Shown here piece by piece: positions 7,780 to 60,360 of a DNA stretch of 64,000 nucleotides. The DNA comes from a virus. The position numbers and the translations under genes are program-made. The notes under the pieces are model-generated. The model saw nothing but the letters and a program-made list of their open reading frames with translations, searched no databases and was not told where the DNA came from. Numbering within the stretch: the stretch's first letter is position 1; each line of letters starts with the position of its first letter. The stretch spans positions 11,363-75,362 of the IMG/VR virus record IMGVR_UViG_3300033512_000125; one strand, written 5' to 3'.

Positions 7780-7810
7780 TTTTTAATATTTATAATAAAA
7801 ACAAAATAAA

Positions 7811-39680: not shown

Positions 39681-40118
39681 ATGTGGATAGATTTACAAGG
39701 AAAAGAATATAAAGAAATAAATGATTTCCAAAATGCATATGGATTTATATATAAAATAACCCATAAAGAAACAGGAAAATTTTATATAGGAAAAAAACAA
39801 TTGGTTTTTAAAAGAAAGAAAAAACTTGGTAAGAAAGAATTATCTTTAATAGAAGTTAAACCAGGACGTAGACCAACTTCTAAATTAGTAGAAAGTGAAA
39901 GTGATTGGAAAACATATTGGGGATCTTCGAAAGAACTTTGTGAAGAAATCCAAAAACAAGGACAAGATAAATTTGACAGAGTAATAATCCAATTAGCATA
40001 TACATCAAAACTATTAACATATTATGAAGCAATGTATCAGATGAAAGAAGATGTATTGCAAATAGATTCATATAATCATAATATTTTAGGAAAAATACAT
40101 AGAAAAGATTTTTTATAA
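39681..40118 (+). CDS. GIY-YIG family nuclease-like protein
   Basis: GFIYKITHKETGKFYIGKK, WKTYWGSS. Confidence 0.75.
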   Translation: MWIDLQGKEYKEINDFQNAYGFIYKITHKETGKFYIGKKQLVFKRKKKLGKKELSLIEVKPGRRPTSKLVESESDWKTYWGSSKELCEEIQKQGQDKFDRVIIQLAYTSKLLTYYEAMYQMKEDVLQIDSYNHNILGKIHRKDFL

Positions 40119-40591
40119 TGAAAGAAATAACACGATTACAGCAACTAGCGGGTATATTAACCGAGATAAAAGTGAATAATCCAATTTTATATGCTAATAG
40201 AATAGTAATATCTAAAGATAATACAGTAGACGGTTTAGAAGGATATGAAAATTTCATAGAAGACTATGGAAATATAATAGATTTTATTACACCTATAATT
40301 TATAAAAAATATAAAGAAGGTGAAGGTATTGGAGAAGACTTAATTAAATTTATAATAAATAATATTAATATTTTAGATAATAAATATCAGTTTGGAGCAT
40401 CAGAAGACTCATGGAAAGGTTGGTTAGACCAATATAAAGATGGGATGGATTTACCTCCAAACTCATCTGGAGGAATTTTAGGAGGACTTGATTATAATGA
40501 TGAATGGTTGTATGACGAAAATATAGCAGAAATTTTTCAAATTGATGAAGATGAAATTCATGATTATTATGAACAATTTAAAACTTGGTAA
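40118..40591 (+). CDS. hypothetical protein with RLQQLAG and EIKVNNP motifs
   Basis: MKEITRLQQLAGILTEIKVNNP. Confidence 0.65.
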   Translation: MKEITRLQQLAGILTEIKVNNPILYANRIVISKDNTVDGLEGYENFIEDYGNIIDFITPIIYKKYKEGEGIGEDLIKFIINNINILDNKYQFGASEDSWKGWLDQYKDGMDLPPNSSGGILGGLDYNDEWLYDENIAEIFQIDEDEIHDYYEQFKTW

Positions 40592-40598
40592 ATAAATT

Positions 40599-40619
40599 AG
40601 GCTCTTTAAGAGCCTTTTT
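40599..40619 (+). terminator. intrinsic terminator
   Basis: AGGCTCT-TTA-AGAGCCT followed by TTTT. Confidence 0.75.
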
Positions 40620-40621
40620 GT

Positions 40622-40840
40622 ATGTTACCAACAAAAATTTCCCTTATGGCAAAATATGGTTTATTCTTAAAAGATGGAAAAGAATGTATATCTCTTTATA
40701 ATACAACAGCAGATTCATTGCGATATAAAGTTAATACAGATAACTTAGCGAGAAAGTATTTTATTACCATTAAACGTTTATCTGAGGAAGATTTTAATAA
40801 ATTATTTGATGTAAAAAGAATACCTAACTATTTAAAATAA
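40622..40840 (+). CDS. hypothetical protein
   Basis: 72 aa; AKYFITIKRL...FNKLFDV. Confidence 0.5.
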   Translation: MLPTKISLMAKYGLFLKDGKECISLYNTTADSLRYKVNTDNLARKYFITIKRLSEEDFNKLFDVKRIPNYLK

Positions 40841-41790
40841 TGGTAGATCCCATATTATTAGGATTAGTAGAATCTATTTTAGGGAAAGGTAAAGAAACTT
40901 CAAAAGGAAATTATTCTTTCAAGTGTTTTAACCCTAAATGCAGTTCTATAGCTAAAGGAAATAATAAATTAGAAATTAATTTAATACCAACGCTTAAAAA
41001 CAAAAATCCATGGAATTGTTGGGTATGTAATTCAAAAGGAACTACATTAAAATCCCTATTTAATTCAATTAAATTACCGCAATCTAAATATGATCAATTA
41101 AATAATATTTTAGGCACAACTTATAAGGTTGAAAAAGTTAAAGTTGAAATACAAGTTGAATTACCTAAAGAATTTAAACCTTTTATTGAATTAAGAAAAA
41201 CAAATATTATTTCTCGTCATGCACTTCATTATCTTATAAATAAAAGAGGAATTACATTTGAAGATATTTTAAAACATAATATTGGATATTGTGAAACAGG
41301 ACGATATAGAAACAAAGTAATAATTCCTTCATATAGTAAAGAAGGTAAATTAGATTATTTTGTTGCTCGAGCATTTATGGAAGATGATTCTCATAAACTT
41401 GATGCCCCTCAATGTGATAAAAATATAATTGGTTTTGAAAGTTTAATCAATTATGATTTACCTCTTATTATATGTGAAGGTCCATTTGATGCTATTGCTA
41501 TTAAAAGGAACGCAATACCTTTGTTTGGAAAAAATATATCTCCAAAATTAAGAGAAAAATTAATGCTTAATAGTATTAAATCAATATATTTATGTTTAGA
41601 TGAAGATGCATTAAAAAATACAATTAAGATTACAGAAGAATTAATATCTCTAGGTAAAAAAGTATATGTAGTTCGTTTACCAAGTAAAGACCCATCTGAA
41701 CTTGGGTTTGAAAAATTTAACAATTTAATCCAATTTCAAAAACCATTCACATTAATGGATTTAATGAAATTAAAAATGGAAATTAATTAA
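40840..41790 (+). CDS. DNA primase (Zn-finger + TOPRIM)
   Basis: CF..C and WNCWVC zinc site, ICEGPFDA, LCLDEDA, KDPSE. Confidence 0.88.
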   Translation: MVDPILLGLVESILGKGKETSKGNYSFKCFNPKCSSIAKGNNKLEINLIPTLKNKNPWNCWVCNSKGTTLKSLFNSIKLPQSKYDQLNNILGTTYKVEKVKVEIQVELPKEFKPFIELRKTNIISRHALHYLINKRGITFEDILKHNIGYCETGRYRNKVIIPSYSKEGKLDYFVARAFMEDDSHKLDAPQCDKNIIGFESLINYDLPLIICEGPFDAIAIKRNAIPLFGKNISPKLREKLMLNSIKSIYLCLDEDALKNTIKITEELISLGKKVYVVRLPSKDPSELGFEKFNNLIQFQKPFTLMDLMKLKMEIN

Positions 41791-41791
41791 T

Positions 41792-42583
41792 ATGAGTGAA
41801 ACCAAACCAACACTATTAAAAAACAAAAAGTATAAAAGAATTCTTGAACTAAGTGGAGACGCATTACAAATTACAACCTTAGACTCCAGATTTTACAGAC
41901 GTAACGGTAAATATTATCCATCTATAACACACGTTTTATCAGTATTTCCTAAAGGCCCTCATTATGAAGATTGGTTAAAAAAACATGGTTATACAAGTGA
42001 ACATATAGCTAAAAAAGCTGCGGAAGAAGGAACTCAAACACATGAATTATGTGAATTATATCTTTTAGGTCAAGAACTTCATTTTTTAAATGAACAACAA
42101 CAACCTAAATACAGTCCTGAAGTGTGGAAAATGTTTTTACGTTTTGTTGATTTTTGGGAAACATTTAAACCAACATTATTAGAAACCGAAGTACATTTAT
42201 TTAGTGATGAATTAAAAATAGCAGGAACTTGTGATATTGTGTGTGAAATAAATGGAGAAATATGGATTATAGATTTAAAAACATCTAACGCTGTCCAAGA
42301 AGTATATGAAATCCAAACCTCATTATATCAAAAATGTTATGAAGAATGTTTTGGTAAAAAAGTAGGTAAAACAGGTATTCTTTGGTTAAAATCATCATCT
42401 AGAGGCCCTGACAAATCAGGACAAAAAATACAAGGTAAAAACTGGCAACTTATTGAAGCTACTAGAAAACATGAAAAAAACTTAGAAATATTTACTCATA
42501 TAAGAGCTATATTTGATTTGGTAAACCCAAAAAGCGCACCAAATCATACACAATTTCCTACTGTTATCATTAGAAAAGAATAA
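41792..42583 (+). CDS. PD-(D/E)xK exonuclease
   Basis: YPSITHVL, EGTQTH, AGTCD, IIDLKTS, Q..LY. Confidence 0.85.
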   Translation: MSETKPTLLKNKKYKRILELSGDALQITTLDSRFYRRNGKYYPSITHVLSVFPKGPHYEDWLKKHGYTSEHIAKKAAEEGTQTHELCELYLLGQELHFLNEQQQPKYSPEVWKMFLRFVDFWETFKPTLLETEVHLFSDELKIAGTCDIVCEINGEIWIIDLKTSNAVQEVYEIQTSLYQKCYEECFGKKVGKTGILWLKSSSRGPDKSGQKIQGKNWQLIEATRKHEKNLEIFTHIRAIFDLVNPKSAPNHTQFPTVIIRKE

Positions 42584-42586
42584 ATA

Positions 42587-42606
42587 AAGCCCTTGAATAA
42601 GGGCTT
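42587..42606 (+). terminator. hairpin, probable terminator
   Basis: AAGCCCTT-GAAT-AAGGGCTT; no clear T tract. Confidence 0.5.
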
Positions 42607-42648
42607 AAGGAAGTAATATTTATATGTGCTAACATTAATAATATCACG

Positions 42649-43344
42649 ATGATAAATATTACAACTTCTCCTCAAATCACAAAAATTTACCTAGTAGAAA
42701 ATTGCTATGGAGACCCTAATAAGGTCTATATAGGTAAAACAAAAAATAGAACTAGACAAAATGACCATAAAATAAAATATGGTAAAGATATAATCTTTAC
42801 TTACATTGATGAAATAGAATCTCTAGAATCTAAAGATTGGAAACCATTAGAATGTTTTTGGATTGAATATTTTAGACAATTAGGATTTGAAATATTAAAT
42901 AAGAATGAAGGTGGAGGAGGATTAGGAATGATAAGTGAAAAAACTCGAAATAAAATGAGTCAATCCCATCTTGGTAAAGGAGGGAAAATGATTTTACAAT
43001 ATGATTTAAAAGGTAACTTTATTAGAGAATGGTCTAGTATTATAGAAGCCTCTCAAAATTTAGGAATAGCTAATACTACCATTTCTAATTGTTGCGTTGG
43101 TATTATTAGAAGCTGTTATAAATATGTTTTTAGCTTTACTCCTTTACCTAAAAACTACAAATATATAAAAAATCAAACCTCCTCCAAAAAAATACAACAG
43201 TTCGACATCCAAGGAAATTTTATAAAACAATGGAATAGTCTAAGTGATGTAGAAAGAGAACTAGGATTCAGAACAAATAATATATCAATGTGTTTAAAAG
43301 GAAATACTAAATCAGCTAATAAATTTATTTGGAAATATAATTAA
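42649..43344 (+). CDS. GIY-YIG homing endonuclease with NUMOD-type repeats
   Basis: KIYLV...VYIGKT, LNKNEGGGG, two QYDLKGNFIREW/QFDIQGNFIKQW repeats. Confidence 0.85.
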   Translation: MINITTSPQITKIYLVENCYGDPNKVYIGKTKNRTRQNDHKIKYGKDIIFTYIDEIESLESKDWKPLECFWIEYFRQLGFEILNKNEGGGGLGMISEKTRNKMSQSHLGKGGKMILQYDLKGNFIREWSSIIEASQNLGIANTTISNCCVGIIRSCYKYVFSFTPLPKNYKYIKNQTSSKKIQQFDIQGNFIKQWNSLSDVERELGFRTNNISMCLKGNTKSANKFIWKYN

Positions 43345-43355
43345 TATAAAATTTT

Positions 43356-43379
43356 AAGACCCTAAAAAGGGTCTTTTTT
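43356..43379 (+). terminator. intrinsic terminator
   Basis: AAGACCCT-AAAA-AGGGTCTT followed by TTTT. Confidence 0.85.
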
Positions 43380-43423
43380 ATTATGTATAAGATTCGTATG
43401 TTTATTAATTAAAAATAAAAGTT

Positions 43424-43624
43424 ATGAAAGTGAATAATCCACAGTTAAAAAATGGAGTATATAAAATAGGAAATTATAATAATATCCCTGTGTATTATAG
43501 TTCAACCCAAGATCCTAATAATATTTTAATAGGAAATAAAGGAGGGAAGAAATCATTTTATATTACAGGATTACCAAATATAAATCAAGTAAAAAAACAT
43601 ATAGTAAGTTATGAAAGTAAATAA
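43424..43624 (+). CDS. hypothetical protein
   Basis: MKVNNP...; follows the promoter variant at 43395. Confidence 0.5.
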   Translation: MKVNNPQLKNGVYKIGNYNNIPVYYSSTQDPNNILIGNKGGKKSFYITGLPNINQVKKHIVSYESK

Positions 43625-43788
43625 CCCACAAACCCACCAAAAATTTATTATTGAAAACCAAAAATGGAAAAAATTAATCCAAAAACAAATAAGTGAAATA
43701 ATAGATGACATACAAATCATTCTCTTACAGAAATAGAAGTTCTAAAACATTTACTTAAAAATACAACAGGTTCTAAATATCATAACTA

Positions 43789-44532
43789 ATGAATAAAGGT
43801 ATAATAATATTAGGCTCAGCAGCATCAGGAAAAAGTCACTTTGAAGAACAATTATATAATTATTTATATAATAAACGTAATAGACACGAATTTAGGGTAA
43901 ATCCCGATTATTATGTAGAAGATGAAGAATCTGAATATTATAATAATCCATTAAGGGCTTATAATTATGTTTACAAAACCATTCTACCAGAAATAATTGA
44001 TTTAAATGGTAATTTTATACTACAAAACACCGGAGCTAATACGAAGACTCTACGTAAAATAATTGATACTCCCAACTATCAATTTAAAGCCGTGATGGTA
44101 TATTGTAATCCAATTATTGCGTTTATACGCAATTTTTCCCGTGAACGAAAACTTCCAAAACAAGTATTATTAGAGAATTGGCTTAAAGTATATTCTCAAA
44201 TAGAAGAATATCAAGATATATTTGGGAAGGATAATATTTATATTTACGAGACAGAATATACAGAAGATGAATTATTTACTTTATATCGATATCAAACAGG
44301 ACGTATGAATATTAAAGATGGATTACTAAAAATGGATGTCGAATCTTCATTTAAAAAGGAATCTACAATTTACACTCCTGAACAAATAAAGATAAAAGAA
44401 CAAAAATTTAAAGAAATTTTAGAGAAAGTTTCAAATAGATTATTTGAATTAGAAGACGAGAATAATTATTTAGCACCGATGGGAGTTAATATAGAATATA
44501 TAAAAGAAGAATTAAATAAATGGATAACTTAG
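43789..44532 (+). CDS. P-loop kinase (zeta-toxin/AAA_33-like)
   Basis: GSAASGKS Walker A, VNPDYY, RNFSRERKLP. Confidence 0.7.
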   Translation: MNKGIIILGSAASGKSHFEEQLYNYLYNKRNRHEFRVNPDYYVEDEESEYYNNPLRAYNYVYKTILPEIIDLNGNFILQNTGANTKTLRKIIDTPNYQFKAVMVYCNPIIAFIRNFSRERKLPKQVLLENWLKVYSQIEEYQDIFGKDNIYIYETEYTEDELFTLYRYQTGRMNIKDGLLKMDVESSFKKESTIYTPEQIKIKEQKFKEILEKVSNRLFELEDENNYLAPMGVNIEYIKEELNKWIT

Positions 44533-47042
44533 GACAAGTAGTAGCAGAACAACTTATAACAGAATTAACACAAACAATAGCCCTTTACCCAGGTGCTTTT
44601 AAACCAAGTACTAAAGCTCATTTTGATATTGTTAAAAGAATATCTCCAACAGTAGATGAGGTACATGTTATTATAGCTAATAATGTTAGAGAAGGTTATA
44701 CACCAGAATTATCACTTAAAATTTGGGAACAATATAAAAAATTATTACCTAATAATGTAAAAGTTTATATATCCAAAGATCCATCTCCTATTACAGAAGT
44801 TTATTCTGTAGTAAAAGATAAATCCAATAATTATGTTGTGGTTTATGGTAAAGGAGAACAAGATAGATATAACTCTATAAATGAGAATAGAGATAAATAT
44901 TCTAATGTTGATGTAGTTGATGCTGGTCAAATAGGTGATATATCTGCAACTAAATTAAGAGAAGCTATAAAAACTAGAAACAAATTAGCTATTAAATCAC
45001 TCATACCTGAAGGAATAAAAGTTAATGATTTCTTAATAAATTTTCAGATTCATGAAATAAAAGTAAATCAACCAAAAACATTAAATTTTCCTATAAATTT
45101 AGATAATCAGGAAAAAGCAATAGAAGTAGGTAAAAAATTATTTAATCTAGATTATTATTGGTTAAACGATAGAAGACCTGATTGGACTAATGCCCCTTTC
45201 AAAACACCAAATTTTGAACCATTTAATATATTTCTAGTAAATGATAATAAAAAAATTATTGACTATGAATATACAACCGAAATAGATGAAGATAAAATCC
45301 CCGGTGGTTTAGCGAAAGGAAAATCAATAGTTGATTTAGCTATCCATCACGGAGATGATTCATGGGCTTCAATTCAATTTGAGTCATTAGAAGCTCAACT
45401 TAAGAAACAGTTGGAAAAAGGTATTAAAGTTGAAATGGAACATACCACTTCAAAAGAAGTAGCAAAAGAAATAGCAATGGATCATTTATGGGAAGATCCA
45501 AAATATTATAATAAATTAGCTTCTATAGAAGAAATTAAAATAAATAAACCTGTAAAACTTTGGAAATTTGATACCGAACTTAAAATTGGGGATAGAGTAA
45601 AAATACCTCAAAAATTCATGGAGGGTGATGTATTTGTTTATTTAGGAGGGGATATTTTGAAGGATGAAAAATCTGAAAACACTTATAGTATAAAAGCTAT
45701 GAAACGTATGTATGATTGGGATTTAGAGCAGATTAAGAATGGAACCCAAACTCAAATAATAGATGAATCTAAAAATTTAGGTACTCTATATCATTTCACA
45801 AATTTACAAAATGCTTCTAATATAATCAAATCAAATCAGATAGTAGCATCAACAACAGAATCATCAGATTATCAAAGAGATTTCCAATTTTTTAAAAAGA
45901 AAGGACAAGAAGTTAGAGATAAAGGTTTAAGTTACTTAACATTTGTTTCTTTAACTCGTGATAAATTATTTTATAAAAAAAGACCTAAAATATCATCCGC
46001 ACCTATAGTAAGATTTGAATTAGATGGAAATAAATTATCTTCAAAATACAAGATAAAACCCTTTAATTATTATGCTGATGAAATAGAAAATGAAACTGAT
46101 AGATTTTATTCTAATGAAGGTGAGGAAAGAGTAAATCTGTATACTAAAGGAGAAATATCTAATTTAGATAGATATACTACTAGAATATGTGTGTTATTAG
46201 ATTTTATTGAAGATAATGAAAGTTATTTAAAACAAGCTAAAGAATTAATATCTACATATCCTGGTAAAGTTATCTCTTTATATAAGGAAAAACCAATGAG
46301 TATAGAAGATTATGAAAAAAATGTATTACCCACTATAGAACCATATAGAGATGAAGAATTTTTAGAAGAAGCTAAAAACTCTATTAAAGAAGCATTGGAT
46401 GAAATAAAAGTAAAATCTCCCCATAATAATTTATCTGTAGATAATTTTATAGAGTTATATAATAAATTAAATGTTTATTACAGTTATGAAATAAGGGATT
46501 TAATAAATACAAAATATGGTTATATAAAAACAGAAGGATTAATAAAATTTTATGAAAGACAACCTTTATTACAAAAAGTATCTTTAATGAAGGATATGAA
46601 TATACTAAATAAAAAATCTAAAGAAAATCTATTAAATACACGAGAATTAAATGAATCAATCCAAATTAATCCTAAAAAATATGTAAATATTTTAAATAAA
46701 CTTGCAGAGGAATGTTGTAGAGAGTTGGAGATACAAAAACCTAACATTATATTAATAAATAACGATAAATACACTTTAGAAAATAAAAGCTATGGGGGGT
46801 ATTTCCCCGGTAAAGATTTAATTAAGTTGGTTATATATGGAAGATTATTAAAAGACGCTTGTGTTACTCTTGTACATGAATTAAGACATCATTACCAATA
46901 TAAGAATAATTTAATAAAATCCGGAGATGGTAAAGATGGAGATGAAATTGAAAATGACAGTAATTCCTTTGCTGGTTCATATTTAAGAAAATTCGGAAGA
47001 AACAACCCAGAAATATATTTTACAAGATATGATAAAAATTAA
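44520..47042 (+). CDS. multidomain mosaic: cytidyltransferase-like + GIKVEMEH module + HExxH zincin-like, with three IKVNxP cassettes
   Basis: YPGAFKPSTKAHF (HIGH-like), ISATKLR, GIKVEMEHT..AKEIAMDHLWEDPKYY, TLVHELRH. Confidence 0.7.
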   Translation: MDNLGQVVAEQLITELTQTIALYPGAFKPSTKAHFDIVKRISPTVDEVHVIIANNVREGYTPELSLKIWEQYKKLLPNNVKVYISKDPSPITEVYSVVKDKSNNYVVVYGKGEQDRYNSINENRDKYSNVDVVDAGQIGDISATKLREAIKTRNKLAIKSLIPEGIKVNDFLINFQIHEIKVNQPKTLNFPINLDNQEKAIEVGKKLFNLDYYWLNDRRPDWTNAPFKTPNFEPFNIFLVNDNKKIIDYEYTTEIDEDKIPGGLAKGKSIVDLAIHHGDDSWASIQFESLEAQLKKQLEKGIKVEMEHTTSKEVAKEIAMDHLWEDPKYYNKLASIEEIKINKPVKLWKFDTELKIGDRVKIPQKFMEGDVFVYLGGDILKDEKSENTYSIKAMKRMYDWDLEQIKNGTQTQIIDESKNLGTLYHFTNLQNASNIIKSNQIVASTTESSDYQRDFQFFKKKGQEVRDKGLSYLTFVSLTRDKLFYKKRPKISSAPIVRFELDGNKLSSKYKIKPFNYYADEIENETDRFYSNEGEERVNLYTKGEISNLDRYTTRICVLLDFIEDNESYLKQAKELISTYPGKVISLYKEKPMSIEDYEKNVLPTIEPYRDEEFLEEAKNSIKEALDEIKVKSPHNNLSVDNFIELYNKLNVYYSYEIRDLINTKYGYIKTEGLIKFYERQPLLQKVSLMKDMNILNKKSKENLLNTRELNESIQINPKKYVNILNKLAEECCRELEIQKPNIILINNDKYTLENKSYGGYFPGKDLIKLVIYGRLLKDACVTLVHELRHHYQYKNNLIKSGDGKDGDEIENDSNSFAGSYLRKFGRNNPEIYFTRYDKN

Positions 47043-47218
47043 ATGAAGTTAAAGAAAAATAAAATTATTCCAACAATTCCGAGATTAATTAAAGAAGGTA
47101 CAATAGGAGATTGTCCTAAATGTAGAAGTACTACTATAAAAAGATTTATATGGTTTGGACGATCTATAGGATGCATCCAACCTAAATGTAATAATTATTA
47201 TAAAATTAAATAAAGAAT

Positions 47219-47743
47219 ATGACATTAATAGAACAATTAGTGGAAGGACAATATAAAATATATTGTGATTTAGATGGAGTGTTATGTGATTTTGATTCAA
47301 GGTTTGAGCACTACACAGGTATGAACCCAGACGAATATAAAAATAACGCTATATTAAAATATGGTGATAAAAAGGGTACCGAAAAATTTTGGGATGTGAT
47401 AGATAATCAAGTTGGTATGAGATTTTGGGCAGGTATGTCGTGGATGCCTGAAGGACAACAACTTTGGGATTATATAAAAAAATATAATCCAATTTTATTA
47501 ACAGCACCATCATATGAAGATTCATCAAAAGAAGGAAAAACTCTATGGGTCCAAGAACATCTTGGAGATTATCAAATAGAATTTAGACAAGCAAAGCAAA
47601 AATCTGAGTTTGCTGGTCCTAACAAAATCCTAATAGATGATAGATTAGATACTATCCAGAGTTGGAAAAGTAAAAATGGTATTGGGATATTATATGAAAA
47701 TACAGAAGATGTAATAAGAGAACTTCAAAAAATGGGAATATGA
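47219..47743 (+). CDS. HAD-family 5'(3')-deoxyribonucleotidase-like
   Basis: IYCDLDGVLCDF, ILLTAP, ILIDDR..TIQSW...GIGI. Confidence 0.8.
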   Translation: MTLIEQLVEGQYKIYCDLDGVLCDFDSRFEHYTGMNPDEYKNNAILKYGDKKGTEKFWDVIDNQVGMRFWAGMSWMPEGQQLWDYIKKYNPILLTAPSYEDSSKEGKTLWVQEHLGDYQIEFRQAKQKSEFAGPNKILIDDRLDTIQSWKSKNGIGILYENTEDVIRELQKMGI

Positions 47744-47904
47744 AATTAAAATATATAATAAATTGGTTAATGTTTTCTTTAATTATGAGTTTTTTTTTAA
47801 TCCCATTTTGTATTGATTATAAACAAGTAATTGGTGGTGGATTTATATTAGGATTTATAACTGGTGTGTTATCAAAAATTGAGGGAAATGCAAGAAAATA
47901 AAAG

Positions 47905-48483
47905 ATGAGTAAAGATACACAATTAAAAAAAGAATTTCAAGAAAAAGATTTAAGTAGAATTAGAAATATAATTGAAAAAAGATATGACGATTCTACAGGT
48001 ATTCAAATAGGATATTCTAAAGAACAAAAAGAATATAGAGAAGGTGATATCTGGGAAGAAAATGGTAAAACTTGGACTATTAAAGATGGTATAAGACAAA
48101 CTATTACCAAATTAGACTCATTTAAAAAATATTCCTCATATCCTTTGATATGTCCTTGTTGTAAAAACCATTTTAAATTACATGAGTTAAATAAAAAAAT
48201 GTATAATATACATGGAAAATGCTCTGATTGTGTTATTGAAATGGAAACTCAACTAAAAATAGAAGGAAAATATGAGGAATATGAAAAAGATTTAATGAAT
48301 AAAAATAAGAATTCTGTTTTAGATGATTTTGAACAAGCTTTAGATGAATATCTTAATTCTCCTATGGACTCCTTTTACACAGAAGATGGACAAAAAGAAA
48401 GTTGGCAAGGTGGACAAGTTGATAAGGAACATATATTAAAAATAAAAGAAGAAATAAAACAACAAAAACTTAAATCTATATAA
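47905..48483 (+). CDS. hypothetical Zn-binding protein
   Basis: EGDIWEENGKTWTIKDGI, CPCC...CSDC. Confidence 0.65.
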   Translation: MSKDTQLKKEFQEKDLSRIRNIIEKRYDDSTGIQIGYSKEQKEYREGDIWEENGKTWTIKDGIRQTITKLDSFKKYSSYPLICPCCKNHFKLHELNKKMYNIHGKCSDCVIEMETQLKIEGKYEEYEKDLMNKNKNSVLDDFEQALDEYLNSPMDSFYTEDGQKESWQGGQVDKEHILKIKEEIKQQKLKSI

Positions 48484-48507
48484 TATTTATATAATATAAA
48501 AAATAAC

Positions 48508-49681: not shown

Positions 49682-49695
49682 GGGTCTTTGTTTTT
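49667..49695 (+). terminator. intrinsic terminator
   Basis: AAAGACCCT-AAATA-AGGGTCTTT followed by GTTTTT. Confidence 0.8.
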
Positions 49696-49909
49696 CTAAA
49701 ATATATTTCGTATATTTACTTAAAATAAAATTATGAGATATATAATATTAATGGCTAATAAACCAACAGAGTTATCCCAAGTAATAAATGAATTTATTAA
49801 ACAACATCCTACCTGTAAATTACAAGGAGGGCCATATTGTGATAATTATGGACATTATCAAGCAATAACTATTTTAGAAACCCAACAATTAAACGATTAA
49901 ATTAAGATT

Positions 49910-52567: not shown

Positions 52568-52593
52568 ATATTTATATGATATAAAATAATCAT

Positions 52594-53058
52594 ATGAAAA
52601 AAAATAGATTAAAAGAAATAATCAAAGAAGTTCTTCTTGAAGAAAAAGGATATTCAAAATATATTCCTGGGGGAAAGACTGATGGATTAACTCAAGATAC
52701 ATTAGAACAAATATTATTAAATATTGCTAATGAGGAAGAAATTGAAGAAAAGTATGAAGGTGATCCTGAACGTGGTAATAAAATTCTAGATACAGCTGAT
52801 CAAGAAAATGTAGATCGTATTTTAAGAGGTGAAGAACCTGAAGTAGACAGAATGAAAGAATTAGCTGGGTTAAAAAAAGAAATAACAGTAAATGACCCTT
52901 CCGATCCTAATTTAAAATATAAACCTTTATTAGATAAATATAATATAGATAAAGATTGGTTACTCCTCCACTTAGGTGATATTGATGATTTAACACCAGA
53001 AGAATGGGATGATTTAGAATATGTAGAAGATAGAATCCAAGCTCATTTAGATCAATAA
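52594..53058 (+). CDS. hypothetical acidic late protein
   Basis: MKKNRLKEIIKEVLLEE; RMKELAGLKKEITVNDP. Confidence 0.65.
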   Translation: MKKNRLKEIIKEVLLEEKGYSKYIPGGKTDGLTQDTLEQILLNIANEEEIEEKYEGDPERGNKILDTADQENVDRILRGEEPEVDRMKELAGLKKEITVNDPSDPNLKYKPLLDKYNIDKDWLLLHLGDIDDLTPEEWDDLEYVEDRIQAHLDQ

Positions 53059-53843
53059 TGACTCCACAACAAATACAACAAAAACTATCCAAAGGTGATG
53101 AAGTCCGTTTTAAAAACGGACTAATCCTGTATTATGTTGGTCCGAAAGATAATATCACTGGTTGGTTTAAAGAAAACCATGGTTCAACCAATACAGTAAA
53201 ACAATATAAATATATTGAAAAAATCCAAGGTAGACCTATAAACGAACAAAAAATGGAATTTAAAAAACTTCTAAAAGAAGAATTAGAAAACGCTATACAA
53301 TCCCAAAAAAAAGAAACACTTACTTTTGAAAGCGATCCTATAGAATATATAATTCAAAGATATCCATCATTAGATGCTACTATGATAGATTTAATGACTA
53401 ATACTTATAGAGACTATCTTACAGGTATTTATGTTATGGCTCCAAAACCGACAACATTTAAGATACTACTTCACAACGGACAATCATTTTACCTAATATA
53501 TAACCCAAAAGCGTATATTGCAAAAATATCAGGAAAGCAATACCATTTGATGTCTTTAAAAGATGAAGAATATGCTGTTAAAGCTATATCGAGATTACTA
53601 TTAATGGGTATTCCTCCAAGTTCTCCTGGTCCTGATGGAGAAGTAGAAAATGAGGCAGATGGTAAAGATGATTTCATATCTGATATGACTTCAGAACCTG
53701 ATTTAGGGTTAGATGGAATTGATGCTTCACCAGAAACAGAACCTGGGGAAGAACCCACTGAAGAACCTGAAGAAGAATTACAAGAACAAGAAGAACCTAA
53801 AAAGAAAATACCTACAAGATTTAGAATTATAAAAAATAAATGA
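53058..53843 (+). CDS. hypothetical protein
   Basis: 261 aa; acidic EEP-rich tail. Confidence 0.65.
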   Translation: MTPQQIQQKLSKGDEVRFKNGLILYYVGPKDNITGWFKENHGSTNTVKQYKYIEKIQGRPINEQKMEFKKLLKEELENAIQSQKKETLTFESDPIEYIIQRYPSLDATMIDLMTNTYRDYLTGIYVMAPKPTTFKILLHNGQSFYLIYNPKAYIAKISGKQYHLMSLKDEEYAVKAISRLLLMGIPPSSPGPDGEVENEADGKDDFISDMTSEPDLGLDGIDASPETEPGEEPTEEPEEELQEQEEPKKKIPTRFRIIKNK

Positions 53844-55144
53844 GTGTAAGTTTATCACCAGACCAGTTATTGAAACCTTATCATTCTAATCATGAATTTT
53901 ATGGTTTATATCAAGACCGAGGAGAACGATTTTTAGAAAAAATAGAAAAACAAGAACCATTTGAATTAACAGATGGTTCTTCTTCAACTATATCTAAAAG
54001 TTCACCTGGTGTTAGATTATTAATGGAAAAAAACTATAAAGAATTAGGTGGAGGTAAAAAATTATTTTATAAAGAAGGAGGAGAATTTATTTCATTATCT
54101 CAATTTATAAAAACAGCAGAATTTGGTTCAAATAATGGGCAAGGGGCTGGTTCTAAAAATACAGCAATACAAGAGAGCACTCAATGTGTTTTTAATTCTA
54201 TGTTGCGTTCACTACAGAAAACATATCTTGATGTAGAAGATATAACAATGGAAAATATATCATCTTCATATCAATACTGCAATACAACAACTCCTTGGGA
54301 AGAGATATATGAATTTTCCCAAATACCATCTTGGCAACAATCATTCCTTACTTCATCTAACATACTTCAAGAATATGTAGGAGAAATGGAATACGAAAAT
54401 CATCGTGATTCATTATTTGTAGATTCTATATATAATTCCTATAAAGAAAACGGTAATTTTCAATTAGATAAATGGAATCCGGCAGATATATGGCTTGTAA
54501 AAGATCATGTTTTAAACACAAGATTCTCAAGTAGTCTCGATGAATTAAATCAACAAATAGAAAATATGTTTGATAAAAAAGAATTAATTGGTGTTTCATT
54601 AAAAAAGATTGGAAAAGAACCTAAAGTCGAGATTAAAAACAAAAAGAAAACAAAGAAACAATATAAATATCTTGGTTATAAAACTACATATAAAAGCAAA
54701 GATGTTAAATTATTATTTGATGGAGGTCAAATATGTTTTAGAACATTTAATTTTGGTACTAATTGGGCTGGAGAAATTTTAGGTAAAACAGCATCTCATG
54801 GTAAAATAGGTTTTGGAGCTATAAATGCAATTTTAAAAAAATATAATTGTGGTTTAAAAACAACAAAAGAGATTAAGCAATTATGGGAAGAACATGAATA
54901 TATTGGTATAAGTTCTTTAATGATATTATTTACAACTAAAATGGAAATCTTACCTAAAGAAGATTTTAATATATTTATACAGGAGAAGAATATTGATTGG
55001 AGAGTTTCTAAACTATTGGGATTACAACTTGTATCTAAAATAGAAAACCAACCAATTGATATACAAAATAAAATTATAACAGAAATAATAAATTATGCTT
55101 CATCTGAACTAGATGAATCTTCTGTTTATTTAAAAATATCATGA
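53840..55144 (+). CDS. hypothetical protein, possible PD-(D/E)xK-like nuclease
   Basis: QES, DKWNPADIW, GVSLKK motifs. Confidence 0.55.
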   Translation: MSVSLSPDQLLKPYHSNHEFYGLYQDRGERFLEKIEKQEPFELTDGSSSTISKSSPGVRLLMEKNYKELGGGKKLFYKEGGEFISLSQFIKTAEFGSNNGQGAGSKNTAIQESTQCVFNSMLRSLQKTYLDVEDITMENISSSYQYCNTTTPWEEIYEFSQIPSWQQSFLTSSNILQEYVGEMEYENHRDSLFVDSIYNSYKENGNFQLDKWNPADIWLVKDHVLNTRFSSSLDELNQQIENMFDKKELIGVSLKKIGKEPKVEIKNKKKTKKQYKYLGYKTTYKSKDVKLLFDGGQICFRTFNFGTNWAGEILGKTASHGKIGFGAINAILKKYNCGLKTTKEIKQLWEEHEYIGISSLMILFTTKMEILPKEDFNIFIQEKNIDWRVSKLLGLQLVSKIENQPIDIQNKIITEIINYASSELDESSVYLKIS

Positions 55145-56574
55145 TAAAAATAAAAGACATAACATCAGAATTATCCCAACTTACAGATAAATATGATGAA
55201 AAATATATTGATGGTCTTGTTAGAGAACAACTTGCTATTTTAGATTATAAAAAGACGTTTCAAGGTGAATTAAATGAACAGGATGAAGAAGATGAGATAG
55301 AATTAGACCCAGAAGAATTACCTGTAGATAAGGAAGAACCTATCGAAAAAGAACCTGAGAGCCAAGAAGAACCAGAAATTGAAACTCAACCAGAAGAAGA
55401 ACCAGAATCAGAGGTACAAGGTGGAGAAGATGGTGAGATAGAATTAGAACCTGAAGAATTACCTACACCAAAACCATTACCTATAGTTCCTACTCCAAAA
55501 GAGGATTATGAAACTATAAGTAGAAAACAAGCACAAGAATTACTTTCTTATAAAGGGAAGATATTCACTGCTGTTTTTTCTAAAAGAGAAGATGGTTCTT
55601 TAAGAGCTATGAATGGAATGACGGGTGTAAGGAAATTTACTGTTGGTGGAGAATTACCATATTCTCCTCAAGAAAAAGGTTTAGTTCCTGTTTATGATTT
55701 AAAAATTGGTTTAGGACGTAAAGGATATAGAATGTTACCATTAGAAGGTTTAAAAACTTTAAACATTAATGGTAAAAAATATAAAATAGATCAAAATATT
55801 AAAGAAATAAAAGTAAATCCACCAAGCCTGTATAAATTCCCTATTAGTATTAATAATGAAATTGAATTAAAAAGGTATTTAGATATATTAAAAGGGGATG
55901 GGTATAGTTTAATAAAATATTTACCAAGATTCAATCAAAAATTGGTTCCAATCAAATATTATAAATATTTATTCCAACATTTTCCATGTTATATATATGA
56001 TAAAAGTGGGGATGGAATAAGGAAAATAGAAGTCTCCCCATTCAAATTACATGAAATTAAGGTAAATAGACCTAATAAATATGTTATAGGAAAAGAATAT
56101 AAAGTTGATACTATTAATGGTACAAAATTATTAAAATTAAATTCCATTGGAAAAGGAAACCATTACAGATTTAAAGATGGTGTAACGATATATCACCTAA
56201 CACAAGACCAAATGGATAGAAAAAATTTAAATGAAAATATGAAAAAATCTGAATTAAGACAATTAGTAAAAGAAGCTATATTAGAATCAAACCCACAACC
56301 ACAAAGAGTATCACCAGATAGAGAAACTATTACAAAACCTGAAACTGATACTCCTGAACGTAAACCAAAAAGACGCACTTTAACTCCACCCACTGAAGCT
56401 CCAAATACAAAACCAAAAGCTGAAGGTGTAATTAAAGAAAACGAGCAACAGATATCTGATAAAATAGCCCAAAGATATAACAATTTAAAACAACCAGAAC
56501 AGTTAGACGAAGCTGTAGGTAGTTTAATTATTGGAGGATTATTGGAGGATTATTGGCTGCCCCTAAAGTATTAG
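55141..56574 (+). CDS. mosaic late protein with SH3-like domain and two IKVNxP cassettes
   Basis: KIFTAVFSKREDGSLRAMNG...VYDL...YRML; acidic linker. Confidence 0.6.
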   Translation: MIKIKDITSELSQLTDKYDEKYIDGLVREQLAILDYKKTFQGELNEQDEEDEIELDPEELPVDKEEPIEKEPESQEEPEIETQPEEEPESEVQGGEDGEIELEPEELPTPKPLPIVPTPKEDYETISRKQAQELLSYKGKIFTAVFSKREDGSLRAMNGMTGVRKFTVGGELPYSPQEKGLVPVYDLKIGLGRKGYRMLPLEGLKTLNINGKKYKIDQNIKEIKVNPPSLYKFPISINNEIELKRYLDILKGDGYSLIKYLPRFNQKLVPIKYYKYLFQHFPCYIYDKSGDGIRKIEVSPFKLHEIKVNRPNKYVIGKEYKVDTINGTKLLKLNSIGKGNHYRFKDGVTIYHLTQDQMDRKNLNENMKKSELRQLVKEAILESNPQPQRVSPDRETITKPETDTPERKPKRRTLTPPTEAPNTKPKAEGVIKENEQQISDKIAQRYNNLKQPEQLDEAVGSLIIGGLLEDYWLPLKY

Positions 56575-56945
56575 AATGGATAGGTAAAGCTACCAAATTT
56601 ATTGTAGGTAAATTAGGTAAAGACGAATCTCAAGCAGCACAAAATATAACAAAATTCGCTCACAAATGGGAAGGATTTTATGTTGGTTCTATCGAGAAAG
56701 TAATTAAAGCAACTGGTGTTGCTAAAAACGTTTGGAAAAACGAAGATGGATTTATAGATTCGGATAAATTACATACTACAGCTAAAGTATTATATGCTGT
56801 TATACTAGCAGTAGCTGCTGGTTATGCAGTAAATGGAGTACTATCATCAAATTCAGCAGTAATTAAAGCAATTGAAAGTGCTATTGGTGGTGTGAAAGGT
56901 GTTGAAATAGCTCAAATAGCATCAAAAATTAAATCTAGTCTATAA
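56553..56945 (+). CDS. hypothetical membrane-associated protein
   Basis: Hydrophobic C-terminal half; start uncertain. Confidence 0.5.
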   Translation: MAAPKVLEWIGKATKFIVGKLGKDESQAAQNITKFAHKWEGFYVGSIEKVIKATGVAKNVWKNEDGFIDSDKLHTTAKVLYAVILAVAAGYAVNGVLSSNSAVIKAIESAIGGVKGVEIAQIASKIKSSL

Positions 56946-58075
56946 TGAATTACGAAGATATATTTTCTCCCCAAACCTTATCTAAATTAAATAAAAAATC
57001 TGCAGAGAATCTAAAACAGATGATTGGAGACAAAAATTTAATGCAGACTATGATTTCTTCCCAAAAATTATTGGGAGAAATATCTAAAGCTGAAGCTCCA
57101 TATAAAGAACAACTTGAAGAATTAGCTGTTCAAATGGTAGAGGATTTATATCCTATTATAAATGAAGAAGGAATAAAAATAGATGCGAAAATAGTGGGAA
57201 TTGGAGATGTTAATTCTTCATTGGATGAGTCTATATCACCGGAATCTCGTCGTCGTATTATAAATGGTATTACTCAAGGCGCAGCATTAAGAGGTGCATT
57301 TTCATTCTATCTTTTTAAAGAATATTTAGATACTATGGATGATACCTTAGTAGACAAATATAACCAAATAATGAAAAATTCATTTGGAATTTATGATGAT
57401 GATAATGCTATAGCAATGTTATTATCTCTATTAGCTCAAGGTCATAAAGCTGCTGGTGGTTCAAGTAAAGTAATAATGAATGAAATAAAGGTAAATAATC
57501 CAACAAAAATAGACCAAAGTAAAGAATTTGAAAAAATTATATCCAAATTAGAAGATAAATATCCTAACTATAATGATACTAAAATATTTAATTTAGCTAA
57601 TAATGAATTTAAAAAGAAATTTGGATATGGTGTAGGAGAAAAATTAAATGAGTCCCAAGAATCTGGTATAACAATTCGTGCTCGTGCCATTTGCTTTCCA
57701 ATGTTAGTTCATGAAATAATTAAAGGTTTATATGAATTAGTTTCATTACAAGGGTTTAAAGGCGATAAAGAAGCTAATCAAGGAGTTGTAGATAAAGTAG
57801 ATAAATTAGAACATGAGCCTCATGATTTAAAATACGGTAAATATATTTATGATGCGTTAAATGATATATTTGCTGAATCTCAATATTCCGATCCAAGGAT
57901 TAGAGAATTCTTCTTTCAAGAAGTATATCAACTAGAAGATGAAGAATTTTTAACTTTAATAGAAAATGCAATTAATGAAGAATTAACTCCATCACAAAAA
58001 AGATGGGTTGACCAAACATTAAAGGAAATATCAATGGATTTAAAAGCAGATGATGCTTCTCAATATATAGATTAA
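56945..58075 (+). CDS. hypothetical late protein with one IKVNxP cassette
   Basis: RRRIINGITQGAA; FPMLVHEIIKGLYE. Confidence 0.7.
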   Translation: MNYEDIFSPQTLSKLNKKSAENLKQMIGDKNLMQTMISSQKLLGEISKAEAPYKEQLEELAVQMVEDLYPIINEEGIKIDAKIVGIGDVNSSLDESISPESRRRIINGITQGAALRGAFSFYLFKEYLDTMDDTLVDKYNQIMKNSFGIYDDDNAIAMLLSLLAQGHKAAGGSSKVIMNEIKVNNPTKIDQSKEFEKIISKLEDKYPNYNDTKIFNLANNEFKKKFGYGVGEKLNESQESGITIRARAICFPMLVHEIIKGLYELVSLQGFKGDKEANQGVVDKVDKLEHEPHDLKYGKYIYDALNDIFAESQYSDPRIREFFFQEVYQLEDEEFLTLIENAINEELTPSQKRWVDQTLKEISMDLKADDASQYID

Positions 58076-58077
58076 AT

Positions 58078-60330
58078 ATGATTAGTTTAAAAGAATTAAT
58101 ATTAAATGAGTATAGTGAAAAAACAATCACTACAACTATAGACCGTTGGAAGAATACCAACCCAAACTTAGACACTAATATAGCAAGACAAGTAATCCAA
58201 AGATTTGACCAAGTCAAATCTGGTTTATCTACTAAATTACAACAAATAGCCTTATCAGATGAATTAAAACAAGGGCAAAATTATCTTAATATAGATAAAT
58301 ACTCTTGGGAAGATATGGTAAATTTACTTCGTTCATTACCAGAAAAGGATGATAAAGTAAAAAAAGATGCCATAAATAAATTCGTTCAAGAAGAACGTAT
58401 GGATAAAGGTACAGTTACTTCTTATGTTATTCGTTTTATGAATAATAGACGTAATTTAAAATATGCTTTAGATAATGGAACTGAAGATGGAAATTATTCA
58501 AAAGAAGAAGTAAAAAAATTAATACCATCCCGTTTAATCCCAAATAATTTATATTTAGATCCTAGAGCATATAATTTCCAACAATTAGAAAATTTATTAG
58601 ACACCTTATTTCCTATGAATGTAGAAGTAGGTGCTGATGAAAATAATGTAACAACAGATGCTGATAAAGTATATGAAAGTGATGGGATAGAAATATATAA
58701 AGGAGATTCTCAACATAAATGTATATCTTATAATCCAACAATTGGTACTAAGAAAAAATATGGGTGGTGTATATCCCAACCTTCTAACCAAATGTATGAT
58801 AGATATAGATTTATGGAAGAAGGTAAAAATAGAATGTTTTATTTTATCTTTGATAGAACTAAAACTTCCGAACCTGAACATAAACCATTTAAAGATCCTT
58901 GGCATTCATTTGTAATTCATGTTGGAGAAGGAAATAGAAGATATTGGATAACAGATGCTGATAATGATTTTGAAAAAGAATTTTCTTCTTGGTCTGATTT
59001 GCAAAAAATAGCTCCCAAAGTATGGAAACGTATTGGAGGTTTAGAATCTGTATTTAAGTTTATAGCACCATCCAAAGCTGAAATATCTGGGGCTGCTATG
59101 AGAGGAAAAAGATTATCCGCTCAAGATTTTCGTGAATTGGATTATGAAGATAAACAACAATATGTTCAATCTAATGCTGGTTCTTTATCAAAAGAAATCT
59201 TAGAAATCTTAGATAAAGAATTAAAAAACTTAGCTATTAATTATGGTCAAAAATTTCCATATTCTCTTTTAAAAGATAATGAAAGTTTAGCAAAAAGATA
59301 TGCTATATTTCGTTTTAGACATACTAATTATGGTAATGAAGCAATTCCACTTCCTTATGTTAAATATTTAGATGAAGATGCTAAGGAAAAATATTTAACT
59401 ACATTCGATGGTAATTTAACATTTGAATTAATTGAAAAATATTTTGGTCCTCAATCGGCAGAAAAATATATTCAAGAACAAATACAAAAATTAGACTTTA
59501 TTCCACCAAATGCTTTAAAATATATTAAAGATCCTAAAATTAAAAAATTATACGAAGTTTATTCATCGTTATTTAAAAATTGGGAATTTGAAAATAATAC
59601 TGATATAAGTGATGAAGAATTAGCTAATAAAGAATCAATGCCTGCACAGTCTGTTACTCCAAAACCTCTAACAGTTGATGATTGGAAAGAATTATCATCA
59701 TCTAAAAGAAAAACAATAATAGACTTAGCAAAGAAATTTACAGGAAACGAAGAATATTTAATTGTATTATATTCAGTTCCATTTGTAGTAAATGACGGTG
59801 ATAGAGATTTAGTTTTACTTCCTATTAATTTAGATGATTTTACGGGAAAATGGTACTTAATGGATATTAATGGTATGGTTATTGATGAGTATAGTGGAGA
59901 AAATGCTATGTTAGGTTCTATTCCATTATATGAAGGTTATCCTAATTTTAATGATGGTGATTTTACTAGAGTTTATAATATAGATGATATTAAAGTTCAA
60001 AAAGAAATAAACGAATATAAATTCCTAGCTGAAATTAAAATAAATAATCCCCAATCTTTATTAATAAAAACAATAGAATTATATAAGAAAAAATATAGTG
60101 CTTTAGAACAAGGATTTGATGGTAATTTAGCAGAAGAAATATATGAATTATTTTTAGATGGTTGGATATGGCATGAAGATGAAAATCTAGAAGATTTATT
60201 TTATAAATTATCCCAAGATGAATTAAAACGATTATATAATTTTCTACAAAGTTATTCTAATATAGATGAAGAAACATTTGAAGAGCAATATCTTCGTGAA
60301 CGACTTGTAGTTCGAGCTGGATTAAAATAA
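58078..60330 (+). CDS. large hypothetical late protein
   Basis: MISLKELILNE; GWCISQ..MYDRYR; C-terminal IKINNP...RAGLK. Confidence 0.7.
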   Translation: MISLKELILNEYSEKTITTTIDRWKNTNPNLDTNIARQVIQRFDQVKSGLSTKLQQIALSDELKQGQNYLNIDKYSWEDMVNLLRSLPEKDDKVKKDAINKFVQEERMDKGTVTSYVIRFMNNRRNLKYALDNGTEDGNYSKEEVKKLIPSRLIPNNLYLDPRAYNFQQLENLLDTLFPMNVEVGADENNVTTDADKVYESDGIEIYKGDSQHKCISYNPTIGTKKKYGWCISQPSNQMYDRYRFMEEGKNRMFYFIFDRTKTSEPEHKPFKDPWHSFVIHVGEGNRRYWITDADNDFEKEFSSWSDLQKIAPKVWKRIGGLESVFKFIAPSKAEISGAAMRGKRLSAQDFRELDYEDKQQYVQSNAGSLSKEILEILDKELKNLAINYGQKFPYSLLKDNESLAKRYAIFRFRHTNYGNEAIPLPYVKYLDEDAKEKYLTTFDGNLTFELIEKYFGPQSAEKYIQEQIQKLDFIPPNALKYIKDPKIKKLYEVYSSLFKNWEFENNTDISDEELANKESMPAQSVTPKPLTVDDWKELSSSKRKTIIDLAKKFTGNEEYLIVLYSVPFVVNDGDRDLVLLPINLDDFTGKWYLMDINGMVIDEYSGENAMLGSIPLYEGYPNFNDGDFTRVYNIDDIKVQKEINEYKFLAEIKINNPQSLLIKTIELYKKKYSALEQGFDGNLAEEIYELFLDGWIWHEDENLEDLFYKLSQDELKRLYNFLQSYSNIDEETFEEQYLRERLVVRAGLK

Positions 60331-60335
60331 ATTCT

Positions 60336-60360
60336 AAGACCTCAATAGAGGTCTTTGTTT
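60336..60360 (+). terminator. intrinsic terminator
   Basis: AAGACCTC-AATA-GAGGTCTT followed by TGTTT. Confidence 0.8.

Follow-up and report, generated by a model that had tools for sequence, protein, structure and literature searches.

In bacteriophage T4, a capsid-targeting sequence of 10 residues precedes a set of highly variable internal proteins and is removed after Glu by gp21, the cleavage rule of which is (L/I)-x-E (Mullaney and Black 1996; PMC9026906). For polyvalent proteins, packaging, delivery with the DNA and processing have been predicted (PMC5512222). In phiKZ, 201phi2-1 and SPN3US, a gp21-related protease recognises a short motif in many head and ejection proteins and cleaves them behind Glu, in some of them at several sites (PMC5694885, PMC7411985). 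The principle of an address, of gp21 cutting, of variable internal proteins and of polyvalent proteins was already in place. Here we describe a window of 64,000 nucleotides from a viral record of IMG/VR (IMGVR_UViG_3300033512_000125, positions 11,363 to 75,362), in which a short peptide junction, [LI]-x-E followed by I-K-[VI]-N-x-P, recurs in otherwise dissimilar open reading frames (ORFs). Positions are those of the window unless given as genome positions, and a slash within a peptide marks the junction. Our reading, held at about even confidence, is that these junctions are portable gp21-type cut sites delimiting exchangeable cargo modules, some of which are addressed to the prohead.

Like the system of T4 IPI, IPII, IPIII and Alt, the phage has a gp21-type S77 protease gene, unrelated small proteins with a common leader ending in (L/I)-x-E, and payloads that vary strongly from one related phage to another. 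Unlike in the T4 internal proteins, the leader copies the C-terminal tail of the scaffold and IKVNxP is nearly invariant; moreover, the modules occur in tandem, in loops of conserved proteins, at C-termini and as free-standing genes. In polymorphic toxins, the VENN motif of CdiA and the PxxxxDPxGL motif of Rhs proteins demarcate swappable ends, and orphan modules keep the motif. The locus resembles them in that a short conserved peptide marks module exchange and that unfused modules carry the same motif. It differs in that modules are internal as well, that the context is the assembly of a phage head and not secretion, and that no toxin/immunity pairs were evident, although no systematic search for them was made. 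The resemblance to polyvalent proteins (Iyer et al. 2017, PMC5512222) lies in ORF 44520, which joins a nucleotidyltransferase, an ADP-ribosyltransferase (ART)-like domain (a lead only) and a putative zincin-like domain, and in the presence of TerL and a portal on the contig; a conserved junction peptide, very small non-enzymatic cassettes and turnover between near-identical genomes are not described there. In the giant-phage heads (PMC5694885, PMC7411985), by contrast, the motif is (S/A/G)-x-E with little else conserved, and the substrates are paralogous inner-body proteins rather than shuffled, capped mini-domains.

The source contig (90,452 bases, approximately 25% G+C, all genes on one strand, 23 tRNA genes) belongs to a lineage of uncultured, AT-rich T4-like myophages. 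It is collinear with G001, a complete 175-kb IMG/VR genome (capsid protein 91% and other proteins mostly 45-80% identical), so it probably covers roughly half of a T4-like genome. A closer relative, L001, is a 13.8-kb contig with flanks near-identical to those of this phage.

The sequence-only reading from which this analysis started had listed nine copies of E-I-[KT]-[VI]-[NK]-x-P, with Glu codons at 40163, 45054, 45531, 46401, 52879, 55804, 56053, 57482 and 60031. A six-frame scan recovered all nine, each in frame on the + strand, in ORFs 40118, 44520 (three copies), 52594, 55141 (two), 56945 and 58078. The MKVNNP start reported for ORF 43424 was also recovered, together with a second ORF of this kind at 43611 (41 aa) that had been overlooked. 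With a slightly narrower DNA pattern, GARATHAMRRTNAAYNNNCC, nine matches were obtained, all on the + strand, against a mean of 0.01 in dinucleotide shuffles. The whole contig holds two more copies downstream of the window, at genome positions 80065 and 88384. Five IMG/VR contigs scanned with a degenerate DNA pattern contained 22 (G001), 9, 10, 8 and 1 matches, on the coding strand only, and the reversed-pattern control gave 0 in the same five. A tenth match in the window (EITINQP, 38571-38591) lies in a repeat of a SprB-repeat fibre protein, has Gln instead of Leu or Ile at P3, and is probably due to chance.

A consensus was compiled from this phage, L001, G001 and 37 metagenome homologues of ORF 55141, a pool that comprised 67 distinct internal motif copies and 11 ORFs opening with the motif. 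Glu occupied P1 in 67/67 and Leu or Ile occupied P3 in 58/67, against a background of approximately 18%. On the primed side, P1' was Ile in the 67 internal copies and Met solely as the start codon of the 11 ORFs; P2' was Lys in 74/78, P3' Val or Ile in 78/78, P4' Asn in 75/78 and P6' Pro in 78/78. The T4 gp21 rule that the sequence-only reading had invoked is thus matched at the junctions. Codons for Glu, Ile, Lys, Asn and Pro within the motif follow genome-wide usage and the x codon varies, so that it is the peptide on which selection acts. The Val codon deviates from this pattern, being GTA, GTG or GTC in 28/29 copies from the window and G001; GTT accounted for 1/29, compared with approximately 36% of Val-before-Asn codons elsewhere. 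Common ancestry of the copies, or conversion among them, may account for this scarcity. A literature search on the motif strings returned nothing relevant.

The unit that the motif opens is a small domain of approximately 45-100 aa that starts with I-K-[VI]-N-x-P, ends with [LI]-x-E and sits in frame directly after a carrier [LIM]-x-E, at a loop, a domain boundary or a C-terminus. Since cassettes start after [LIM]-x-E and end in [LI]-x-E, both of their junctions read [LI]-x-E/, as the gp21 rule would have it. Six internal cassettes of 78, 78, 84, 83, 60 and 56 aa, closing on IDE, IDE, LNE, LHE, LNE and LNE, had been proposed, and all were found as described. Three lie in ORF 44520 (44520-47042, + strand, 840 aa, the 'polyvalent' protein): 45057-45290 (78 aa, IHE/IKVNQP ... 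EIDE/), with a payload of family 'a' (FPI...GYxW); 45534-45767 (78 aa, IEE/IKINKP ... IIDE/), which is SH3-like with many IGDR-type motifs; and 46404-46655 (84 aa, LDE/IKVKSP ... ELNE/). Two stand in tandem in ORF 55141 (55141-56574, + strand, 477 aa), at 55807-56055 (83 aa, family 'a') and 56056-56235 (60 aa). The sixth, at 57485-57652 (56 aa, MNE/IKVNNP ... KLNE/SQES), interrupts ORF 56945 (56945-58075, + strand), a carrier of 376 aa. The remaining copies lead into C-terminal payloads. ORF 40118 (40118-40591, + strand, 157 aa, three homologues found) has a 16-aa leader, MKEITRLQQLAGILTE, then IKVNNP at 40166, with the payload making up the rest of the protein; ORF 52594 (52594-53058, + strand, 154 aa) has an internal RMKELAGL, then KKE/ITVNDP at 52882 and its payload; and ORF 58078 (58078-60330, + strand, 750 aa) carries LAE/IKINNP at 60034, a C-terminal cassette and the ending RLVVRAGLK. 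We considered inteins for these units and rejected them, as the cassettes start with Ile and end with Glu, contain neither Cys/Ser/Thr nor His-Asn at their ends, measure 45-100 aa and fall into many unrelated families.

The same sites are filled differently in close relatives. Clean presence/absence indels bounded by x-E, which the sequence-only reading had predicted, were found in L001, in G001, among homologues and in metagenome contigs; constant segments at constant positions, which would have spoken against it, were not seen. In ORF 55141, an extra 83-aa block lies exactly between ...IKE and the next EIKVNRP, and L001 cleanly lacks it (flanks approximately 95% identical). ORF 52594 and its L001 counterpart differ in their C-terminal payloads from directly behind EITVNDP onwards, and in a contig from metagenome run X1 the payload is likewise replaced, exactly after 52898. 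Where ORF 56945 has one 56-aa block, L001 has two different blocks and an extra C-terminal one, and ORF 58078 is without a block that L001 holds before the conserved ...RAGLK end. Compared with G001, the sites are again filled differently, and two G001 head-module genes between portal and protease carry cassettes absent from this phage. Across contigs from four metagenome runs and three studies, similarity breaks or resumes at 52898, 55817/55818, 57483/57489 and 57656; the break at 55817/55818, in ORF 55141, recurs in runs X1, X3 and X5, and a run X1 contig joins 57483 to 57656 with four letters between them, i.e. an empty-site variant. As proposed earlier, inserts sit directly after a pre-existing [LIM]-x-E. 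Inspection of the cassette sequences showed no inverted repeats at their ends.

The carrier encoded by ORF 56945 offers the largest sample of filled and empty sites. Its family has 1202 detected homologues, many of approximately 338 aa on contigs of 160-180 kb; neither Pfam nor PHROGs supplies a name for it, and no match came from a cultured phage. At site 2, which in this phage is filled by the 57485-57652 cassette, 12 of the listed homologues are empty (GGSSKVI[IM]xE, three to four residues, then GITI[RK]A) and 14 are filled. Eleven of these 14 inserts start with I-[KQ]-[VI]-[NK]-x-P, and 13 close on [LI]-x-E, immediately ahead of the native sequence. Site 1 follows LDE (codon 57227-57229). 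Neither this phage nor L001 has an insert there; five others do, each insert opening with the motif, and four of these inserts end in INE or LNE and one in IKE. A third site, used in relatives, is the natural C-terminus after G[LI]DE; ORF 56945 stops at YID, one residue short of it. The predicted structure of the protein (mean pLDDT 83.6) combines a long bundle of helices with a small beta sheet. Only three stretches fall below a pLDDT of 50, and these are the empty site 1 (residues 92-98), IKVNNPTK (181-188) and the cassette end ...KLNE/SQES (228-240). The cassette itself is modelled confidently as a helical hairpin between the strands 172-179 and 241-248, placing it in a beta-hairpin turn. 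In the model, then, both junctions are flexible and accessible, which a protease would require. A fold search with this model gave no match at E <= 0.001; very weak rows for ClyA/NheA-type helical toxins (TM approximately 0.1) were not used.

A candidate protease for these sites is encoded on the same contig. Peptidase_S77 (PF03420, the T4 gp21-type prohead protease) was identified at genome positions 81372-81992 (E 1.1e-29; 103.8 bits against a cut-off of 27), between the portal gene and the scaffold and capsid genes. The gene order 3' of the window is TerL, gp20-like portal, three unnamed genes, Peptidase_S77, a small ORF, an acidic scaffold-like protein and a gp23-type capsid protein, with a baseplate wedge gene upstream. 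Flavobacterium phage immuto, with whose major capsid protein that of this contig shares 54% identity, arranges its head module in the same order. Most motif-bearing proteins, and the genes between portal and protease, obtained no name from PHROGs or Pfam.

The scaffold-like protein supplies a second motif, R-[ML]-Q-x-L-A-G-[IL]. In this phage, G001 and immuto, R-M-Q-K-L-A-G-I-K stands at its extreme C-terminus, and similar C-termini are found in ORF 8092 (8092-8625, + strand, 177 aa, ending KRMQRLAGLK) and, as ...RAGLK, in ORF 58078. As a 16-residue leader, ...R[LM]QQLAGIxxE, the peptide opens ORF 40118, genome ORF 82000, six small ORFs of G001 and ORFs of L001; it is internal in ORF 52594 and others. 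In total, at least 12 proteins carry it as an N-terminal leader or directly upstream of a junction, and in its non-C-terminal copies E/IKVNxP follows within one to three residues. For example, the G001 orthologue of ORF 8092 continues past this point as ...RMKKLAGINE/IKVNNP and a payload. Other relatives have short leaders of approximately 10 residues that end in [LI]-x-E, with the motif at residue 10-11. One G001 protein contains a fused copy that retains the start Met of the leader ORF (...T-MNEIKRLQQLAGILSE/IKINNP), indicating gene fusion at the junction. By analogy with T4 capsid targeting, the scaffold-tail leader is a plausible capsid address. A complex prediction for the capsid protein and the first 40 residues of ORF 40118 scored 0.00, which is not evidence either way. 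In the ORF at genome positions 82000-82404, which separates the protease gene from the scaffold gene, a variant junction, ILME/NETNNP, comes after the LAGI leader.

Payloads are diverse, with rough clustering giving 40 clusters among 78. The sequence-only reading had noticed that two cassettes share IKVNxP....FPI.[IL][ND]N, and these proved to be members of a real domain family, 'a' (FPI..., helix, GYxW), for which a profile search of 1.84 billion proteins returned 67 representative clusters. Among the 62 sequences retrieved, 25 are free-standing, as ORFs of 60-90 aa opening directly with the motif, and another nine carry short leaders; the rest are embedded in proteins that reach 1810 aa and have as many as nine junctions. 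The AlphaFold model of family 'a' (mean pLDDT 80) is a small alpha/beta domain, the first ten residues of which, comprising the motif, are coil (pLDDT 62); Foldseek found nothing in the PDB at E <= 0.001, and the best Z in a wide VIA-align search was 4.5. Two free-standing modules occur in the window, both on the + strand and both starting MKVNNP: ORF 43424 (43424-43624, 66 aa) and ORF 43611 (43611-43736, 41 aa), which overlaps the end of the former. G001 has two tandem MK[VI]NNP ORFs between the same flanking genes. Free-standing and internal copies differ at one codon, ATG versus ATA or ATT. Pfam and PHROGs scans recognised no toxin families among the payloads; one relative's polyprotein contains an Imm5-like domain.

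ORF 44520 consists, in order, of a PPAT/NMNAT-like nucleotidyltransferase, a cassette, DUF5661, a cassette, a DarT/ART-like domain, a cassette and an HExxH domain. Its domains are separate genes in other phages, the NMNAT domain being one in immuto. Residues 417-628 (45768-46403) resemble ADP-ribosyltransferases of the DarT/PARP/DUF952 type in language-model features and in an Atlas model, with modest scores. We treat this domain as a lead only; if present, it would recall the packaged T4 enzyme Alt. The C-terminus, in which HExxH can be read, is a candidate metallopeptidase-like domain, with weak matches to DUF3920 (24.4 bits, cut-off 27.3) and DUF6782 (16.1 bits, cut-off 27).

The sequence-only reading had described the motif-bearing proteins as late, which would hold for part of the locus only. 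A late-promoter-like element, ATATTTATA, occupies 13 intergenic spots 11-36 nt (mostly 21-25) before start codons, at window positions 7787, 9529, 22399, 25676, 35150, 42617, 48484, 52569 and 63239 and, beyond the window, at genome positions 75414, 78962, 85933 and 86646. The genes behind it include TerL, baseplate, head and neck genes and ORF 52594, the first of the cassette-rich unit 52594-60330, where the core TATTTATA (52569-52576, + strand) lies 25 nt before the ATG. From its position, ATATTTATA is a candidate late promoter, and a hairpin with a T-run (approximately 60336-60356) follows ORF 58078 as a candidate terminator. The label would suit this unit; 40118-51000 also contains primase-like, nuclease, homing-endonuclease, RNA-ligase and phosphatase genes, and the other motif-bearing ORFs lie in mixed operons. 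A further element, TTCGTATRTTTAC (TTCGTAT[AG]TTTAC), has 21 copies on the + strand and 0 on the - strand (window -11225 to 16182, 43395 and 49709; genome 137-27544, 54757 and 61071), mostly 24-48 nt before small ORFs. Because 18 of the 21 are concentrated in the small-ORF and tRNA part of the genome, an early-type rather than a late promoter is suggested. One copy of this element stands in front of the free-standing module ORF 43424, where the promoter-like sequence TTCGTATGTTTA lies 29 nt upstream. The T4 late promoter TATAAATA was tried as a classifier and rejected, being equally common on both strands.

Several further features of the region were noted. A GIY-YIG homing-endonuclease-like gene (42649-43344) is flanked by a PD-(D/E)XK nuclease gene and by the two MKVNNP ORFs; G001 has its homologue elsewhere (17524-18237), so the gene is probably mobile. 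The TerL of G001 (G001:C1:152859-155639) has 926 aa compared with 528 here and contains the only true intein seen, a classical one of approximately 400 aa with endonuclease-like content, which begins with Cys and ends in His-Asn followed by Cys (C...HN/C). A TTG-start ORF of 130 aa with a hydrophobic C-terminal half (56553-56945) is absent from L001, and contigs of runs X3 and X5 skip it, joining 56489 to 56942. The sequencing runs in which the DNA occurs are metagenomes of runoff, sludge, freshwater and wastewater; their word shares are small, and no habitat is claimed from them. No RNA run is among those listed.

We favour gp21-type cut sites because the Glu is invariant, P3 is Leu or Ile, the far end of the cassettes repeats the same tripeptide, an S77 gene is present, the leader copies the scaffold tail and the junctions are flexible. 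On this reading, carriers and leader-tagged small proteins would enter the prohead, some by means of R-M-Q-x-L-A-G-I copying the C-terminal tail of the scaffold. The prohead protease would cut after Glu, freeing modules with the new N-terminus IKVNxP, and these would exit with the DNA. The short conserved junction would also be the point at which modules are gained, lost, duplicated and swapped between phages. The earlier picture of head-packaged polyproteins with a library of cassettes is partly supported in this form by the cassette indels, the protease gene, the junction rule and the leader; cleavage, capsid loading, ejection and the roles of the payloads are inferred.

A number of observations weigh against this reading. 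Known gp21 substrates show few determinants beyond P1 and P3 (PMC9026906), and the primed side IKVNxP is far more conserved than that. The likely cut sites of the capsid protein itself, LLE/TQAK or VLE/NNTT, are without IKVNxP. (The sequence LVLE/NNTTNQ lies near the expected maturation site of that protein.) Proteases of the gp21 type are active only inside proheads, so that cutting presupposes loading; ORF 44520 and its orthologues, which carry more copies than any other protein, are without the address leader and contain housekeeping-like enzymes. Genes starting with M-K-[VI]-N-x-P (the 25 of 62 from the profile search, two here and at least nine in G001) need neither cutting nor packaging. 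At site 2 of ORF 56945, the left-hand [IM]xE is native strand sequence and not necessarily a cut site, and, judging by the model, a carrier with an insert in a beta-hairpin turn could tolerate a permanently attached cassette and still work. Finally, a tblastn search of 50,697 phage records revealed no cultured phage with the carrier proteins, and a pattern scan of the genome of immuto, a cultured relative, gave 0 motif copies. Since many modules are free-standing M-K-V-N-x-P genes, one of them with an early-type promoter-like motif, the cap cannot be explained solely as the primed side of a cut site. IKVNxP may be an optimal, context-independent primed side closed by a Pro that breaks strands, or it may act as an N-terminal cap with a function of its own, common to injected modules and to those expressed early.

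In a different and rather unlikely, though substantial, account, the junction is never cut. It would serve as a flexible, insulating linker between domains and as a short homology handle for recombination, with cassettes remaining attached as decorations of loops and termini and the free-standing genes forming an unfused reservoir. The flexible linkers around the hairpin-turn cassette of ORF 56945 mean that the carrier fold needs no excision, free-standing modules bear the same cap, the start Met kept in the fused G001 copy bespeaks gene fusion at junctions, and the scarcity of GTT hints at shared descent or conversion of DNA copies. What an uncut linker leaves unexplained is the invariant Glu at P1 with Leu or Ile at P3, and the 13 of 14 inserts that end in [LI]xE with no motif following. 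Synonymous sites otherwise vary freely, so a DNA homology handle alone is not what is conserved. Zincin-type enzymes typically read the primed side. An improbable alternative would assign the cut to the HExxH domain of ORF 44520, acting in the cytoplasm or after injection, with Ile in a hydrophobic S1' pocket. Primed-side reading would account for the conserved IKVNxP, the domain ends a protein whose orthologues are the most cassette-rich of all, and embedded metallopeptidases have been proposed to process polyvalent proteins (PMC5512222). Its Pfam matches, however, are below the curated cut-off (24.4 against 27.3 bits for the better one), and the right-hand cassette ends, [LI]xE without IKVNxP, fit a protease that reads P3-P1. 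Both the S77 protease and the HExxH domain are present in all motif-bearing genomes seen, so that occurrence does not separate the two.

Explanations that dispense with proteolysis altogether fare worse. It is very improbable that the junction acts in translation, whether as a 2A/StopGo-like peptide or through weak internal initiation at AUA/AUU that would give M-K-V-N-x-P N-termini. The likeness of ...LQQLAGILTEIKVNNP to the viral 2A sequence ...LKLAGDVESNPGP is superficial, and the ATG versus ATA/ATT difference between free-standing and internal copies would suit initiation. AUA and AUU are, however, very poor initiation codons in bacteria, a 2A peptide would end a product whereas the motif begins products, and the invariant Glu, P3 Leu/Ile and [LI]xE cassette ends would go unexplained. 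The 2A/StopGo motif proper (D-[VI]-E-x-N-P-G-P) was rejected, as the consensus E-I-K-[VI]-N-x-P has N-x-P without the Gly-Pro of the NPGP core. We give hardly any credence to the idea that the motif is a DNA-level element (for instance a promoter, a homing-endonuclease site or a transposable-element end) and is translated only by accident. Copies do lie on one strand only and the GIY-YIG gene does adjoin the free-standing modules; yet every gene of the contig is on that strand, the motif is always in frame, and third codon positions, the x codon and the V/I choice vary while residues are kept. Among such elements, a transposon was rejected for want of inverted repeats at the cassette ends, and a homing site of the neighbouring GIY-YIG gene was rejected as that gene is elsewhere in G001.

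Returning to gp21-type cut sites, a more ambitious form of the reading, which we consider quite unlikely, is a tripartite plug-and-play code (scaffold-tail address, [LI]-x-E cut site, IKVNxP cap) that would load arbitrary small proteins into T4-like capsids and release them. Cassettes in loops of folded virion proteins would then be excised by the head protease, as a non-ligating counterpart of inteins, and the IKVNxP neo-N-terminus would be a signal for stability, ejection or docking to a host target, common to the free-standing early genes. Beyond the known principle, what is new here is a nine-residue junction with a conserved cap; a mimic of the scaffold tail as leader; two-sided [LI]-x-E cassettes in the loops and termini of a very large family; and the occurrence of the same modules as free-standing genes.

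Should the junctions be cut, this lineage would have turned a head protease and a scaffold interaction into a portable code. Any small protein with the cap and a terminal [LI]-x-E would be insertable into virion proteins and delivered with the DNA, and such modules would be exchangeable between phages over very short evolutionary distances. This would open a direct way to study the 'first wave' of injected proteins, which evolve fast and may be counter-defence factors, and possibly offer a compact tag for loading engineered cargo into T4-like capsids. Dozens of uncharacterised mini-domain families are indicated, given 67 representative clusters in one family. Even if the junctions are not cut, the locus offers an exceptionally clear example of domain cassettes entering and leaving, in frame, the loops of a conserved protein family of approximately 1200 members.

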